Virus record (IMG/VR): IMGVR_UViG_3300045988_105766
Source: a virus
Reading direction: 5' to 3' (one strand)
Length of the DNA stretch: 46,812 nucleotides
Shown here: positions 3,009-42,395 of the stretch, one piece after another
How the letters are laid out: each line of letters opens with the position of its first letter
How positions within the stretch are numbered: the first letter of the stretch is position 1
Notes under the pieces: generated by a model
Seen by the model: only the letters and a program-made list of their open reading frames with translations
The model's database searches: none
What the model was told of the DNA's origin: nothing
Program-made: the position numbers and the translations under genes

Positions 3009-4232
3009 CTATAACCGATTCTTACCGCAACGCTTTACCTCGTATTGGTAGCTTTCGGTTTCTGCCGTGGTTGCCATTCCCTTATCAGATATTCCGGGTT
3101 TTGTGTTTGTATAAGGTTCTGTACCTGTTTTCTTCTGTCCTGTCATATCTGTTTCATAAGGGTATTGTTCTGTTTCGGTGTCTGCCACCGTCTGTATATC
3201 TCTGTCCTTTACAGTTACCGCCCTGTCGGGTGCTGTTCCTACAAATATGCTTTCAAACGGATAGGCTTGCACTTCTGTTTCTCCAACTGCTGCCACATCC
3301 GCCGTTTGATACTGTATATTTCTATCCGGCTTTGTTCCTGCAAGTTCTGAATCAAACTTATATGCCTGCCCTGTAGCCTGTGCGGTTATTCCCTCCTGTG
3401 CTACACCTCCCGCCGTGTTTCTCTGCGGTATCGTTCCGGCTTTTGCCTGTCCTGTCTGATTGCTCGTATATTGGTATCCCATTGTGTCCGATTCGGTCAC
3501 AATCTCGGTATCCTTTGTTGCAAATGTAATATTCCTGTCCGGCTTCGTTCCTGTCGGTGTAAATTCTGCCGTATATCCCGCTGCCTGTGTCATTACATCT
3601 ATGACCGTATTTTCAACCGCACCAACCGTATTTCTGTGTGGTTCTGTTCCTGCCTTTAATTGCCCTGTCATAGGCACGGAATATAGCCAAAATTCCGTTT
3701 TAGGCATTACTACCACAGTAATAGACCCTTGGTAATAAAGACCGTCTAAATGAGCCGTTAAACGCTTGTATATGTCAACCGTCTTTATAATCTCGTCATA
3801 GTCTGCTGCAACCCTTGATTCTGTCGTATCAAGTACAATACGGAATCTGTACGGCTTTCCTCCGTAGTCGAACCACTCTTCTATCTCACTCTTTGGGTGT
3901 ATTCCACCCAAAGCCATTTCAACGGCTGCCTTTGTGCCTAATTTCTGATGCACTCTTACGCTATCCCGGATAATCGCCCTTTTCGCTTCTATCGGGTAAT
4001 CGTAATCGTACCAATCTACATGGAGGTCATACGCCAATACATCAAGCCACGTTTCCGATAACTCGTTTATATTGGCATATATGATATTCTTTTTTGTCTG
4101 CTCTACTGTTTGGTGCAGTTCGTCCGCTATGAGCCGACCCAACGCAACCATTTTTTCATCCTTTTTCAAGGCGGGCGGAAATGTTGCGTAAAAATCGGCA
4201 TCTTTTAAACTATTCATCTTCGACCCCTCCAA
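3009..4232 (-). CDS. baseplate/tail protein, P2 gpI-like N-terminus with a repeat-rich C-terminal half
   Basis: 407 aa, follows the gpJ-like gene. The C-terminal half carries alternating degenerate repeats (TGQxKAGTxPxRNTxG x3 and GTKPDRNI-like x3). Confidence 0.65.
   Translation of the reverse strand: MEGSKMNSLKDADFYATFPPALKKDEKMVALGRLIADELHQTVEQTKKNIIYANINELSETWLDVLAYDLHVDWYDYDYPIEAKRAIIRDSVRVHQKLGTKAAVEMALGGIHPKSEIEEWFDYGGKPYRFRIVLDTTESRVAADYDEIIKTVDIYKRLTAHLDGLYYQGSITVVVMPKTEFWLYSVPMTGQLKAGTEPHRNTVGAVENTVIDVMTQAAGYTAEFTPTGTKPDRNITFATKDTEIVTESDTMGYQYTSNQTGQAKAGTIPQRNTAGGVAQEGITAQATGQAYKFDSELAGTKPDRNIQYQTADVAAVGETEVQAYPFESIFVGTAPDRAVTVKDRDIQTVADTETEQYPYETDMTGQKKTGTEPYTNTKPGISDKGMATTAETESYQYEVKRCGKNRL
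3483..3501. repeat. 19-bp near-palindrome copy A (TGTGTCCGATTCGGTCACA)
   Basis: Inside the gpI-like CDS; reads VTESDT on the minus strand. Confidence 0.8.
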
Positions 4233-5361
4233 AGGTTACGGTACACTTTTTCAATACCGCAACGCTTCCCTTTGGTATCTCCGTGAATACAGGTTTTTTA
4301 ATATCCGCCCTCTTTATGCCCGAATCCATAAGGATTGCATAAAAATAGGACGGGTTAATATCCCGCCCCATTTTAGAGGTCTGCCATAATTCGTAGCTTT
4401 CCACCGCCAAATCAACCGCCCTTTTGATTTCTTTGGTGCTTGCTTCCTTGTCTTTTGGTATGTAATATGTTAATTCAATATCAAAATCAACCGTTGTCGG
4501 TGCTGCGACCGTTACCTTATCCGTCATAGGTCTTATATCATCTGCACTTAAATATGCCTGCACCTCTTTTATAAGTTCCTCGCTCGGCAACTCTCCGCCA
4601 TATAGCATTATCCTTATATCTGCTACTCCGTCCTGCGGACTTTCTGCGGATACATCACTTATTTGTGAGGATACCGCCTTAGCGTGATATATATAACTCC
4701 CTCTCGGTCCGGCGGTAGTGTAGCTTTCTTCGGATTCTCTCATACGGTTGTAATATGCGGTATCGCTTTCTTCTCCGCTTCCCCCGGCTGTTTCTGTTGT
4801 GTTTGCCACTTCCTTAAAATATAAAAATTCCTCTGTAACAAGTCTGCTTACCTGTCCGGGTGTAAAGCCGTTTCCGTCCTCTCCTAATGTCGTGCATACC
4901 GCTTCTACCTCTGCGTATGTTTCTCCTGCTGGGAATGTCAAGTATCCCGTTGTCACAAAGTTTATGTATCCGTCTACCGTTACCTCGATTTCATCCGTTA
5001 TCACATACTCCTTATCAAGTGCCGTTGTAATACTGAATCCAAGCGTTGTCCTTGCTGCCGTAGGCTGTAGCCTGTATGTGTTATGGAATATTTCACTTAA
5101 TGAATCTAAATTTTGCCCTGTGGCATATCTTGGTAAGTTCTGTTTTGCCGATTCGTTGATATTTACCCTTTCCTGTATGATTACACTTGCAAGCCAAAGG
5201 ATAAACGCTCTTACAGGGTCGGCAGGGTATAAGGTTCTGCCTGTAATCTCTTCGTATCCGGCTATCAGTTTATTTACAAGTGCTTCCGTATCGGTATCCA
5301 CAAACTCAACCTCGGGTAACTCACTCGGTATATTCCTCGTCGTATTCGTCATATTCGCCAT
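4210..5361 (-). CDS. baseplate J-like protein
   Basis: 383 aa, with size and position typical of P2 gpJ / PBSX XkdT between the gpW-like and gpI-like genes. Confidence 0.75.
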   Translation of the reverse strand: MANMTNTTRNIPSELPEVEFVDTDTEALVNKLIAGYEEITGRTLYPADPVRAFILWLASVIIQERVNINESAKQNLPRYATGQNLDSLSEIFHNTYRLQPTAARTTLGFSITTALDKEYVITDEIEVTVDGYINFVTTGYLTFPAGETYAEVEAVCTTLGEDGNGFTPGQVSRLVTEEFLYFKEVANTTETAGGSGEESDTAYYNRMRESEESYTTAGPRGSYIYHAKAVSSQISDVSAESPQDGVADIRIMLYGGELPSEELIKEVQAYLSADDIRPMTDKVTVAAPTTVDFDIELTYYIPKDKEASTKEIKRAVDLAVESYELWQTSKMGRDINPSYFYAILMDSGIKRADIKKPVFTEIPKGSVAVLKKCTVTFGGVEDE

Positions 5362-5668
5362 TTACTTCTACCTCCACTTTAGGTTTTAATATGCCCCTTT
5401 CGTAGTCTGTCGTAAAATCTATACTTACAATCTCTGCTCTCGGCTCATATTCTCCGATTTTGTCATAAATATCTGCCGTTGCAAGTGCCGTTGCTGTTGT
5501 AATCGGTTTATCTATGTAAGCTGCATTTAATCCAAACTCACGGTTAAGCGGTATGTCATATTCTAACGAGGATAGCAAAAACCAAACATTTTGTATTACT
5601 TCCTCGTATAGTGTTTGAGGTGCAAGGTTTATAGGCTGTTCCTGTGCGGTATCTATCGTAAAACTCAT
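5321..5668 (-). CDS. baseplate wedge protein, gpW/gp25-like
   Basis: 115 aa with an acidic tail, immediately upstream of the gpJ-like gene. Confidence 0.65.
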   Translation of the reverse strand: MSFTIDTAQEQPINLAPQTLYEEVIQNVWFLLSSLEYDIPLNREFGLNAAYIDKPITTATALATADIYDKIGEYEPRAEIVSIDFTTDYERGILKPKVEVEVNGEYDEYDEEYTE

Positions 5669-5682
5669 TCCTGCCTGCCTTT

Positions 5683-6081
5683 CTACCTCTTTGCGTACTG
5701 TTCAAGCGATAAGGTGCTTTTGGCTATCAACAGGTTTCCTTGATTATCGAATTTCTCATAATCTTTTGTATGTCCTATGATAACCCATTGGCTGCCGTAT
5801 TTCTTACCGCCGATAACAAGCGTAAGGATTTTTCCTTTCTTTCTGTACTTGTCTATTTTGTTCTGCATTTTCTTGGGATTTACCCCAAGAAATGCGGATA
5901 GATAAATGGTAAGGCTCGCCGTGTCTGCATCATTGTATTGAAACTCTAATAACGGCTTTTTAAGATGCCTTGTGTGTTTTGCATAATTGGTTTTACTGTC
6001 TATCTTCAAATCGTCAAAGGTTCTTACCTTATTTGCCGATACCTTAAAGACAATATCCCCAAGTGTTCCAATCTCTGCCAT
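5683..6081 (-). CDS. tail protein, P2 gpU-like
   Basis: Start set at MAEIGTLGDIVF (ATG 6081, TAATG overlap with the upstream stop). Sequence pattern resembles the GpU family. Confidence 0.55.
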   Translation of the reverse strand: MAEIGTLGDIVFKVSANKVRTFDDLKIDSKTNYAKHTRHLKKPLLEFQYNDADTASLTIYLSAFLGVNPKKMQNKIDKYRKKGKILTLVIGGKKYGSQWVIIGHTKDYEKFDNQGNLLIAKSTLSLEQYAKR

Positions 6082-6362
6082 TAGATACCTCCTATAACAA
6101 AACCGTCCCCCTCTCCGTCCGGCTTGAATATGCACAATACCCATTGCCCTACGGTTGGAATCCAAGGTTTTACTTTAATCTTGCATCCTATTTCACATTC
6201 CACGGTTGGCGGTCGTTTTACAATCCTTAAATCTCCTGTAACTATGCCCTGGTCCGGAATCTGTACCCTTGCGGTCATTTCTCCGGCGTTTACCTTACTT
6301 ACCTGTCCGATTCTTACAATATCTTTTAGTTCCTGCATATCTGTACTGCTGAATCCTGCCAT
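6081..6362 (-). CDS. small baseplate spike/assembly protein (gpV-like)
   Basis: 93 aa between the gpD-like and gpU-like genes. Confidence 0.5.
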   Translation of the reverse strand: MAGFSSTDMQELKDIVRIGQVSKVNAGEMTARVQIPDQGIVTGDLRIVKRPPTVECEIGCKIKVKPWIPTVGQWVLCIFKPDGEGDGFVIGGI

Positions 6363-41918: not shown

Positions 41919-41924
41919 AAATAA

Positions 41925-41952
41925 CCCCCAAGGCTTCATCAAGCCAAGGGGG
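41925..41952. terminator. bidirectional intrinsic terminator between convergent genes
   Basis: CCCCC(AA)GGCTT-CATC-AAGCC(AA)GGGGG, with T-rich runs on both sides. Confidence 0.6.
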
Positions 41953-41975
41953 CATTTTGTTTACTGCATATTCTG

Positions 41976-42359
41976 TTATTTTGTATTTTCTACAAGTGTT
42001 ACCACTGCCGGGGTTGTCTGCTGTTTGTTTTCAATGTAGGTTGTAAGGTTCTCGTTAGCTTCCCATTTCTTTTTTGCTTCCGCTAATACAGATTCCGCAA
42101 TCTGTACCAACTGCTTTTCTGTAAACAGGATTCTAACCACGCTCGGCAGATATGCGTACATTTTCGCAACCACTTCCGACAGCTTAATAATCCCTGTGCC
42201 GGCCCCACACTCTCCCTCTGCATCTGTGACAAACTTAATTGCAATCTGCTTTAAGATTTTGGTCTGTCCTGTCTTGATTAAATAAATAATCAAGGCTACA
42301 ACCATAGCAATAAGCAATACAGAATCCCAATTAACAAGTAACCATTTTAAAATCTGCAT
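41976..42359 (-). CDS. holin-like membrane protein (LL-H-type architecture)
   Basis: 127 aa with an N-terminal TM segment followed by GAGTGIIKL. It is the last gene of the lysis cassette. Confidence 0.5.
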   Translation of the reverse strand: MQILKWLLVNWDSVLLIAMVVALIIYLIKTGQTKILKQIAIKFVTDAEGECGAGTGIIKLSEVVAKMYAYLPSVVRILFTEKQLVQIAESVLAEAKKKWEANENLTTYIENKQQTTPAVVTLVENTK

Positions 42360-42376
42360 AGTATTTTCCTCCGTTT

Positions 42377-42395
42377 TGTGACCGAATCGGTCTAT
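42377..42395. repeat. 19-bp near-palindrome copy G (TGTGACCGAATCGGTCTAT)
   Basis: Overlaps the stop codon of CDS 42392-43519 and abuts the SD of the gene starting at 42359 (17-nt gap to the ATG). The 13-nt core is perfectly symmetric. Confidence 0.75.

Follow-up and report, generated by a model that had tools for sequence, protein, structure and literature searches.

Genome organisation and the parA-parB pair

The window analysed here, a stretch of 46,812 nucleotides (IMG/VR record IMGVR_UViG_3300045988_105766), represents the whole circular genome of a myovirus-like phage from Lachnospiraceae. At its end the window carries an exact direct repeat of 55 nt and therefore closes to a circle of 46,757 bp. 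Along with a diversity-generating retroelement and a parA-parB pair, the genome encodes a P2 gpI-like baseplate protein (3009-4232), a tail assembly chaperone (11732-12103), a head decoration protein (17020-17373) and RecU (31792-32421), all on the minus strand, as well as a 159-aa protein (24095-24574), a lysis-region gene (41976-42359) and a conserved IS30-family transposase. A G8 run separates the gene at 40272 from ORF 39645-40208, and the frameshifted gene 40272..39645 encodes a membrane/secreted protein. A sequence-only reading of this DNA had named the gpI-like, chaperone, decoration, ParB-like, ParA and RecU genes, and independent annotation agrees.

The ParB-family protein (483 aa; 24941-26392, minus strand; PF02195, phrog_4715) begins with a ParB N-terminal domain of the CTPase type, in which an AGHRRRLA box is found; an HTH follows, and then an uncharacterised C-terminal half. 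It scores 39.4 bits against PF02195 (cut-off 26.3). The GxxRxxA box, the conserved N128/R132 (box III N/R) and the HTH are all present, with G86, R89, N128 and R132 invariant among 18 distant homologues, and the best matches of its profile to solved structures are Noc and Spo0J/ParB (E 3.5e-15 to 1e-10). With TIGR00180, the canonical ParB model, the score of 36.7 bits is below the cut-off of 58.45, which places the protein on a divergent branch and not among canonical chromosomal ParBs. An AlphaFold model (pLDDT 57.6) was too poor for a check of the fold. The partner of ParB is a 250-aa Walker-type ATPase, ParA (26775-27527, minus strand), with a deviant Walker A motif (KGGCAKTT) and matches to AAA_31 (1e-47), CbiA and the ParA-like phrog_164; against the SopA model NF010259 it reaches 34.9 bits, the cut-off being 725. 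Judged by these profile matches, the phage proteins are Soj/Spo0J/Noc-like and not SopA/SopB-like.

Eight copies of a 19-bp near-palindrome

The sequence-only reading had described a near-palindrome dispersed over eight positions, and motif search, core count and shuffled sequences all bear this out. Five copies are perfect matches to TGTGNCCGAWTCGGTCACA (3483, 12035, 17290, 26439 and 32386), two have one outer arm altered (40286 and 42377, with three mismatches to TGTGNCCGAWTCGGTCACA and ending ...TCGGTCTAT) and one, at 39645, is degenerate. The core CCGAWTCGG occurs in the window exactly eight times, namely at these sites including the degenerate copy; shuffled sequences gave a mean of 0.04 matches, and 13 strand-matches were reached in none of 100. 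The consensus is a conserved core, G-N-CCGAWTCGG-N-C, with GT/AC arms on either side; its central base is freely A or T. In the phage clade the bases at positions 5 and 15 do not complement each other (A/A or A/G) in any coding copy. On the circular genome the largest gap between the eight sites is 9.1 kb, and the distances, roughly one site per 5-9 kb, are suggestive of an even spacing.

Site A (3483..3501), a full 19-bp palindrome at about codon 245 of the gpI-like gene, reads VTESDT and is kept in two relatives (L071 and L074) whose gpI is only 63-66% identical, with flank nucleotide identity down to 62%. Site B (12035..12053), also full, falls within the N-terminal part of the tail assembly chaperone, which is variable, at +59 nt from the start codon; site C (17290..17308), full and read as VTDSGT, is in the head decoration gene at +74 nt from the start codon; and site E (32386..32404), full, covers codons 7-12 of RecU within a clade-specific N-terminal extension. 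The remaining full copy, site D (26439..26457), occupies the parA-parB junction, some 46 nt before the ATG of parB. A 62-aa ORF upstream of parB overlaps it, but as a gene this ORF lacks conservation: where relatives have a 70%-identical ParB, stops close it 2-4 codons upstream of the site. Thus, site D is best treated as intercistronic.

Site F (39645..39663; TTATTCCGAATCGGTTACT) is the degenerate copy, at the 3' end of gene 40272..39645 and 64 nt upstream of the start of the IS30-family transposase; its inner CCGAATCGG is intact, but neither outer arm nor the G/C of the 13-mer core survives, and its function is doubtful. Site G (40286..40304) is non-coding, retains the 13-mer core with one outer arm changed to ATAG (minus strand) and immediately precedes the SD of the gene at 40272; a perfect consensus promoter (40606-40578, minus strand) is found about 270 nt upstream of it. 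Site H (42377..42395), with an intact core and one ATAG outer arm that provides the stop codon of 42392-43552, directly precedes the SD of the lysis-region gene 41976-42359 and is kept in two relatives (L036 and L016). We thus see again what had been noted for the copies at 40286 and 42377, both abutting SDs, the first non-coding and the second over a stop codon.

Reading frame and conservation at the DNA level

Read from the minus (coding) strand, all five perfect copies give V-T-(E/D)-S-(D/G)-T and the 39645 copy gives VTDSE-stop, and translation thereby confirms the single frame ascribed to all coding copies; the copies at 40286 and 42377 have TAG in the codon slot of GTG. The strictness of this frame had been considered unexplained. 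However, a codon-usage model alone assigns about 80% of the occurrences within coding sequence to the V-T-E/D-S-D/G-T frame, and outside the phage clade the frame is not strict, being used by 69% of 35 independent coding sites elsewhere. The constant frame is simply the one in which the DNA word is easiest to encode.

A constraint on synonymous positions, raised as a possibility by the sequence-only reading, is present: between orthologous sites nothing varies, not even third codon positions, with flanks down to 50-60% identity, and rare codons are kept within them (TCG, 11% of Ser codons, and GTG, 15% of Val codons). Site D is retained whether coding or not. An identical word at many places could also be what remains of a mobile, REP/MITE-like palindromic element or of a VTESDT-encoding protein segment that was duplicated, and copies D and E do have a few extra flanking bases in common (AT...GAAAAA). 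The flanks are otherwise unrelated, however, and free of target duplications; site positions are stable among relatives with 50-100% flank identity, and the motif is missing in relatives without ParAB. Furthermore, the decoration-protein site aligns gap-free to LTETGT, VPETGT and LTESGT of motif-less homologues, and the gpI site does likewise with its own homologues devoid of the motif, so that the sites arose by substitution and not by insertion. We regard a mobile or duplicated origin as extremely improbable; the derivation from one duplicated protein segment, which had been named as an alternative, agrees neither with the unrelated flanks nor with the gap-free alignments.

Association of the motif with ParB among relatives

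The 17-mer, scanned against IMG/VR, matched at least 120 loci, part of the matches having another cause, the conserved endolysin peptide PCP[IN]RAH. Among the matches listed, the window proteins co-encoded most often at these loci, by far, are ParA (25 loci) and ParB (22 loci), at 25-50% identity, and the 159-aa protein is present at 5; the 17-mer frequently sits exactly in the parA-parB junction. Relatives were also retrieved through ParB only, covering 36-100% identity, G+C contents of 27-57% and several Firmicutes classes, and here the core GTCCGAWTCGGAC is usually located 24-33 nt upstream of the parB start. At a ParB identity of 66% or less, the core (at most one mismatch) was found within 80 nt upstream of parB in 26 of 57 loci, typically at -24 to -33, and anywhere in the locus in 39 of 57, with about 45 exact cores seen and about 0.2 expected. 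In most lineages the centre of the site lies 24-74 nt before parB, and the same parB-linked site is found in Lachnospiraceae, Tepidibacter, Paenibacillus, Clostridium, Defluviitaleaceae and Selenomonadales genomes.

In TerL relatives that encode ParAB of this family, the motif is present at or adjoining the parA-parB junction, either exact or with one mismatch, and none of the nine TerL relatives without ParAB has it. It is also absent from a locus with a partial ParB match and no ParA (L273), and some ParB homologues (e.g. L179-L181, L199, L200, L204 and L302-L305) have no recognisable copy within 20 kb. Across related genomes the motif persists, following this ParB family into very distant elements. 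As in a ParABS system, a ParA-type ATPase gene lies next to parB, and a palindromic cis site is tied to the par operon and co-varies with the ParB lineage.

From the comparison of relatives, site D is the ancestral and most widely conserved position of the motif. The ancestral site would have been in the parA-parB junction, immediately before the ribosome-binding site of parB, and in the phage clade point substitution would have made further copies at seven other genome positions. These would have arisen mostly in intercistronic gaps and tolerant N-terminal tails, the coding copies taking the one frame that spells an innocuous hydrophilic hexapeptide.

Related palindromes in clostridial plasmids

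The C. perfringens plasmid pCP13 has ParA and ParB (37% and 39% identical to the phage proteins, respectively) as the only proteins in common with the window. Its parA-parB junction contains GGTGTCCCCGGGGGACACC, and six more exact 17-mer copies and at least one degenerate copy are present elsewhere in the plasmid; in pCd5_2 of C. difficile, TGTCCCCAGGGGACA occurs three times, once directly after parB. The plasmid palindromes have the same arms as the phage motif (GTGTCC..GGACAC) and a different centre, which is CCSGG in the 19-bp pCP13 palindrome and GAWTC in the phage. Whereas most phage sites are inside coding sequence, the pCP13 copies are all intergenic and flanked by A and T runs; they resemble bidirectional terminators and may therefore not be pure protein sites. 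The pCP13 family has been described as carrying parA-parB and, downstream of parB, a 117-bp region proposed as 'parS' (PMC4459074). This putative published parS is a region other than the palindrome, and the pCP13 palindrome was not found in the searchable literature.

Gene starts, transcription signals and RNA structure

Seven of the eight sites are within 75 nt of a start codon (P ~1e-4), a trend also seen in other lineages, and the clustering of sites near gene starts is suggestive. Promoter-like matches are not enriched, the promoter scan being at background level (55 vs 46.9 +/- 7.0) and giving no sign of a promoter association. A role of the sites as intrinsic terminators was rejected, since none was called on the minus (transcribed) strand at any of the eight; the sole terminator call among them (42380-42392) is on the non-transcribed plus strand.

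Nearness to gene starts suggests regulation, and the motif might be the operator of another phage regulator, either the 159-aa protein or a repressor, that travels with the par/terminase module. A few distant loci (L017, L045 and L081) do contain both the motif and the 159-aa protein. Nevertheless, such an operator appears very improbable: among the matches listed, no window protein nears the co-occurrence of ParA/ParB, the 159-aa protein with its 5 loci standing against 22-25; pCP13 has a related palindrome in the same junction with only ParA/ParB in common; and the conserved position is the parA-parB junction itself.

We also weighed whether the motif is an RNA hairpin in the long minus-strand transcripts, serving processing, mRNA stability or translational control and read as a structure or by an RNA-binding protein. 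In this one-strand genome every copy has the sense orientation, three are directly 5' of an SD (26439 in relatives, 40286 and 42377), the proximity to start codons and its recurrence in other lineages would fit, and the pCP13 variants look like terminator hairpins. On the sense strand, however, the hairpins are weak (-6 to -9 kcal/mol, z-scores -0.1 to -2) because of the A.A mismatch, and an A.A or A.G mismatch at positions 5/15 is found in every coding copy. The central base is free (A or T), no Rfam family matches, the sequence is conserved across lineages with no covariation preserving the pairing, and the tight linkage to a ParB that binds dsDNA would be left unexplained. The RNA signal put forward by the sequence-only reading thus finds no support, given the weak folding and the conservation of sequence rather than pairing, and we hold it to be very improbable. 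Non-complementarity at positions 5/15 weakens a hairpin, whereas a dimer reading two half-sites on the duplex would tolerate it.

A probable parS-like role for the sites and comparison with known systems

On grounds of co-occurrence and position we assign the site to ParB, its presumed reader, and consider it quite probable that the palindrome is a specific parS-like DNA site of this phage-encoded, Soj/Spo0J/Noc-type protein. The ParB family here is uncharacterised, and the sites are most likely parS-like for it. We infer that ParB dimers would bind each site as double-stranded DNA. Characterised ParB-CTPases offer an analogy, by which the dimers would probably be loaded at the site as clamps and then spread along the adjacent DNA. 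Through these complexes ParA would segregate the circular prophage or replicon, and they may also dampen the genes directly downstream, parB first.

In Firmicutes, Soj/Spo0J reportedly act with several 16-bp parS palindromes, some of them inside genes including spo0J, as Lin and Grossman are said to have described in 1998. The phage system resembles chromosomal ParABS of this phylum in its small Walker-type ParA (250 aa here), in an HTH-containing ParB with a GxxRxxA CTPase-type N-domain, and in several palindromic sites, some coding and one at the par operon. The phage site, however, is a 19-bp odd-length GTGNCCGAWTCGGNCAC, whereas the Firmicutes chromosomal parS is TGTTNCACGTGAAACA, and the sites are distributed all round a 46.8-kb replicon instead of near an origin. 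Unlike canonical chromosomal ParB, the phage ParB has 483 aa with an uncharacterised C-terminal half and is sub-cut-off for TIGR00180.

The linear plasmid-prophage N15 has four dispersed SopB-binding inverted repeats, IR1-4 (PMC7205306), which, like the phage motif, are GTG....CAC palindromes of the form GTGCGACC-NN-GGTCGCAC (oligonucleotide table, PMC7205306). The idea of dispersed parS-like sites as in N15 receives strong comparative support, in that the motif co-occurs and co-localises with the ParB family, but the likeness to N15 itself is functional only. In both cases a temperate phage has single inverted repeats scattered and not in one array, those of the phage studied here being candidate partition sites. 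N15, in contrast, is of type Ia, with SopB and a large SopA that bears an N-terminal DNA-binding domain, whereas the phage ParA has 250 aa and its ParB is nearest to Noc/Spo0J; site sequence and host phylum differ, and the eight phage sites, most inside or at the edges of genes, compare with four in N15.

Relatives of the phage were found on contigs >300 kb; together with the conserved IS30-type transposase, this indicates that the prophage may integrate, which makes a pure plasmid-partition role less obvious. It is conceivable, if rather unlikely, that the ParB of this clade is not (only) a partition protein but a Noc/KorB-like CTP clamp that coats or silences the whole prophage or gates genes. 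If true, clamp sites would be written into gene starts and N-terminal codons round the genome at about one per 5-9 kb; the genes gated by ParB would be parB, the lysis-region gene 41976-42359 and the gene for the membrane protein at 40272; and in the related clostridial plasmids the palindromes of this protein would serve as terminators as well. KorB of RK2 is a ParB-CTPase clamp that partitions and silences from 12 dispersed OB operators (PMC11790492), and VirB and BisD are related ParB-like regulators (PMC10770331, PMC12409273). Regulators of the KorB type have their operators at or close to the promoters of many operons and work with a clamp-locking partner (KorA/TrbA). KorB operators are intergenic, whereas most phage sites are within coding sequence and the phage promoter scan is at background. 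As with KorB-OB, a mobile element here combines a ParB-family protein with numerous palindromic sites scattered over it, and the phage sites cluster near gene starts as would those of a regulator.

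A dispersed near-palindrome is conserved as a DNA word

A motif search of the window with the pattern TGTGNCCGAWTCGGTCACA gave perfect matches at 3483, 12035, 17290, 26439 and 32386, together with matches carrying three mismatches at 40286 and 42377, where the end reads ...TCGGTCTAT; the chance expectation is a mean of 0.04 matches in dinucleotide-preserving shuffles. The inner core CCGAWTCGG occurs eight times, and these occurrences are exactly the sites of the sequence-only reading, the degenerate 39645 copy included, confirming that the repeated motif is real. The gene assignments made in that reading were likewise correct: a gpI-like baseplate protein (3009-4232), a tail assembly chaperone (11732-12103), a head decoration protein (17020-17373) and RecU (31792-32421), each hosting a perfect copy, as well as a 250-aa ParA (26775-27527, minus strand) and a ParB-family protein (24941-26392, minus strand). 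The fifth perfect copy, at 26439, lies at the parA-parB junction upstream of parB. All credible genes of the window are on the minus strand, on which the five perfect copies are read as V-T-(E/D)-S-(D/G)-T and the 39645 copy as VTDSE-stop; in the variant copies at 40286 and 42377, TAG stands where the perfect copies have the codon GTG.

The orthologous sites in the gpI, chaperone, decoration and RecU genes and before parB are invariant over 17-19 nt, with flanking nucleotide identity down to 50-60%. The word contains the rare codons TCG (11% of Ser), GTG (15% of Val) and ACC (19% of Thr), and the pre-parB site is kept in relatives where stops close the overlapping frame 2-4 codons upstream. 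These comparisons indicate that selection acts on the DNA word. Weaker matches with one or two core mismatches number 12 in the window, against about 4.6 expected, all kinds together; we did not count them as sites, since only the one at 19364-19382 is kept in relatives. This match (CTTGTCCGATTCGCTCCCT, one mismatch to the 13-mer core) lies in the portal gene, is kept in close relatives and may be a weak or relic site.

The motif accompanies a ParA/ParB family in phages and bacteria

Megablast with 24 kb of the window detected no close relatives in INPHARED phages or PLSDB plasmids, and Clostridium phage Saumur and pCP13-type plasmids were revealed by tblastn only. In IMG/VR, GTGNCCGAWTCGGNCAC matched at least 120 loci, whose G+C content ranges from 28% to 64%; the two N positions are complementary in most of them, which is not what chance matches would give. 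We compared the whole window proteome with these motif loci, setting close relatives aside. Among the matches listed, ParA (25 loci) and ParB (22 loci) were by far the commonest co-encoded proteins, at 25-50% identity, and the motif is placed exactly between parA and parB in many of the loci.

In the reverse test, loci were fetched through conserved ParB peptides alone, taken from a five-sequence ParB alignment. When ParB identity was at most 66%, the core (at most one mismatch) was found no more than 80 nt upstream of the parB start in 26 of 57 loci, and somewhere in the locus in 39 of 57. The upstream core is usually centred at -24 to -33, and exact cores in the ParB-fetched loci number about 45 against about 0.2 expected. 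More distant ParB branches keep GTCCGAWTCGGAC with altered outer bases. The same association was observed in bacterial assemblies, both in the clade of the window (Lachnospiraceae CAG:882, Acetatifactor, Petralouisia muris and bacterium D16-51) and in distant branches (Tepidibacter, Paenibacillus alvei, Clostridium, Defluviitaleaceae and Selenomonadales).

A third independent sample consisted of relatives fetched through the large terminase. Where these relatives encode this ParAB family, the motif, exact or with one mismatch, is found at or beside the parA-parB junction; it is absent from nine terminase relatives without ParAB, although several of them share homologous capsid, decoration, chaperone and RecU genes. 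The cultured phage Saumur, whose ParB is 41% identical and whose gene order is that of the window, has three copies: at the parA-parB junction, in the tail sheath gene and just past the start of another gene. Altogether, three independent comparative tests lend good support to the proposal of the sequence-only reading that these are putative ParB sites dispersed as in N15.

Other readers were considered and dismissed. Neither the C5 methylase nor the IS30-type transposase of the phage is found together with the motif across loci, and a role for the motif in terminase or pac function would agree neither with its multiple dispersed copies nor with its presence on plasmids. Separately, in six GC-rich IMG/VR loci (L037, L038, L052, L094, L108 and L110) the 17-mer is produced by the conserved peptide PCP[IN]RAH and appears to have no obvious relation to ParB; each of the six also has a homologue of the window endolysin (43530-44561), at 50-56% identity.

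The 483-aa ParB displays a PF02195 domain, an AGHRRRLA (GxxRxxA) box, invariant N128 and R132, and a helix-turn-helix (HTH). When 18 distant homologues are combined in a profile, it matches Noc and Spo0J/ParB structures with E-values of 3.5e-15 to 2e-10, including, through the HTH, the H. pylori Spo0J-parS entry. The score of the protein itself, below the TIGR00180 cut-off, places it in a divergent branch. An AlphaFold2 model of ParB, for which the alignment was shallow (at least 73% identity), had a mean pLDDT of 57.6, too low for it to be informative. The recognition helix (S..Q.GR.E.I) is conserved in ParBs with GAWTC-centred and with CCSGG-centred sites, and comparing their HTHs revealed no readable specificity determinant. 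At the level of comparative genomics there is good support for a ParABS of the Soj/Spo0J/Noc type that occurs on phages and plasmids of Firmicutes and whose putative site had not been described before. It offers a testable consensus, GTG-N-CCGAWTCGG-N-CAC, with the plasmid variant GTGTCCCC-S-GGGGACAC, for a large uncharacterised ParB family. Members of the family occur in temperate phages of Firmicutes, among them those of gut Lachnospiraceae, and on toxin plasmids of C. perfringens and C. difficile. Knowledge of the site could help to predict incompatibility groups and to equip hard-to-engineer anaerobes with stable vectors or fluorescent ParB/parS tags; it could also be used to ask if phage ParB-CTPases regulate genes like KorB.

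Plasmids carry a variant of the palindrome

C. perfringens pCP13 has only ParA (37%) and ParB (39%) in common with the window. Its parA-parB junction contains GGTGTCCCCGGGGGACACC, which has the length and the arms GTGTCC..GGACAC of the phage site and a different centre. The 17-mer GTGTCCCC[GC]GGGGACAC recurs exactly at six more places spread over the plasmid, and in degenerate form at least once, the palindromes lying at 1701, 3516, 13510, 18492, 37854, 45174, 45228 and 49934 (locus L215, NC_003042). The exact copies are in gaps between annotated genes, as given by an incomplete PLSDB gene table, and are flanked by A and T runs. They resemble bidirectional intrinsic terminators, and the palindrome may have a dual use as putative ParB site and terminator. 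C. difficile pCd5_2 (ParB 33%) has three copies of TGTCCCCAGGGGACA, one directly after parB. A paper on pBCNF5603 and pCP13 proposed a putative 117-bp region as parS (PMC4459074), which is different from the palindrome found here. The phage and plasmid palindrome strings are absent from the searchable literature, irrelevant primers being the only matches.

The conservation pattern points to duplex DNA rather than RNA

The sequence-only reading had also considered an RNA hairpin signal in the transcripts. The sense-RNA folds of the sites reach only -6 to -9 kcal/mol (z-scores -0.1 to -2), a weakness due to the A/A or A/G combination at positions 5 and 15 of all coding copies; across lineages the sequence is conserved beyond mere pairing, with a centre that is freely A or T, and no Rfam family matches the sites. 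These observations argue against a hairpin. No terminator-like T run was found at any site on the transcribed strand of the window. A promoter and terminator scan gave no excess of matches over shuffled sequence and is thus uninformative about operator-promoter overlap. The conservation pattern would fit recognition of two half-sites in duplex DNA by a protein dimer.

Position 5 of the sense-strand motif is A in 8/8 copies, giving Thr in all coding copies, and position 15 is mostly A, so that the palindrome is consistently imperfect in the clade of the window; in other lineages the two positions form perfect T/A or C/G pairs. An amino-acid preference and the avoidance of a stable hairpin are both possible reasons for the imperfection.

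Codon compatibility accounts for the constant reading frame

The frame shared by the coding copies had been presented as strict and unexplained. In a codon-usage model built from the window's own genes, 80% of coding occurrences of the 19-mer are expected in the V-T-E/D-S-D/G-T frame, where the centre base falls at the third codon position, and 7% and 12.5% in the others (69%, 16% and 16% for the 17-mer). With these proportions, five of five copies would share this frame with a probability of about 0.33. Of 35 non-redundant coding sites from other loci with a G+C content of 50% or less, 24 (69%) use the same frame, 9 the second and 2 the third. The preference is general and quantitatively predicted, and it is not strict.

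VTDSGT of the decoration protein corresponds, in a gap-free alignment, to LTETGT, VPETGT and LTESGT of homologues devoid of the motif; no gap is needed at the gpI site either, while the RecU and chaperone sites are within variable N-terminal tails. The copies thus arose as substitutions in compatible or tolerant peptides, and we rejected the insertion of a mobile unit and the duplication of one protein segment, the latter an origin raised in the sequence-only reading. The case is an example of how a DNA word that is presumably bound by a protein can spread through a gene-dense genome: the word settles where a compatible peptide pre-exists, and a constant reading frame arises by itself.

Sites are evenly spaced and close to start codons

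The largest gap between sites on the circle is 9.1 kb; a gap as small arises in 1.1% of trials with eight random points and in 0.2% with six site clusters. Seven of the eight sites lie at most 75 nt from a start codon, against 20% expected (binomial P ~1e-4; median test P = 0.006), and the tendency recurs in 39 non-redundant sites elsewhere that are not beside parB (44% vs 21%, P = 0.0015). Both patterns were examined post hoc and are suggestive. The order stop codon, site, Shine-Dalgarno sequence and start is seen at the Saumur parA-parB junction and at 40286 and 42377 in the window. Regulation, such as a roadblock or KorB-like silencing, could explain the placement near starts; an equally possible reason is that gene boundaries and N-terminal tails are the sole places tolerating a 19-nt constraint.

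Genome form, lifestyle and neighbouring features

Positions 1-55 are repeated exactly and directly at 46758-46812, and a diversity-generating retroelement (DGR) cassette is contiguous across the end junction, which falls inside its template repeat (TR); the window thus represents an entire circular genome, 46,757 bp long. The DGR is complete with two targets (92-1631, 36747-37727 and 45276-46812, plus 1-55). It comprises target gene 1 (588-1631, minus strand; variable repeat, VR, 600-709), an avd-like gene (92-502), the reverse transcriptase (RT) gene (45276-46490), an Rfam RT-14 RNA (46554-46704), the TR (46703-46812, continuing across the circle junction) and the FGE-like target 2 (36747-37727; VR 36783-36892).

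Many relatives are genome-length contigs of 45-47 kb, and some sit within contigs of 120-360 kb. Among the proteins scanned there was no integrase of the tyrosine or serine type. An IS30-family transposase (38553-39590, minus strand; 237.9 bits, cut-off 80) is syntenic with the 'transposase' of phage Saumur (74% DNA identity), and the degenerate 39645 motif copy is 64 nt upstream of its start. Rather than a stray IS, the transposase is probably the enzyme with which the phage itself integrates. Since integration through such a DDE enzyme is possible, the sequence does not fix the role of the ParABS, which may be partition in a plasmid state, segregation of excised circles or regulation.

The adjacent gene (39645-40272, minus strand), with an N-terminal signal or transmembrane segment and its own perfect consensus promoter (40606-40578), is split into two frames at a G8 run (~40145-40152), either by an assembly error or as a phase-variable tract. 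A C5 cytosine DNA methyltransferase (29343-31002, minus strand) is split over two overlapping ORFs, with its N-terminal part in 30109-31002 and its C-terminal part in 29343-30509. Finally, internal tandem duplications of ~190 nt with 80-84% identity, at 42408-42831 and 43536-43951, encode repeated SH3-like modules in two adjacent lysis-region proteins.
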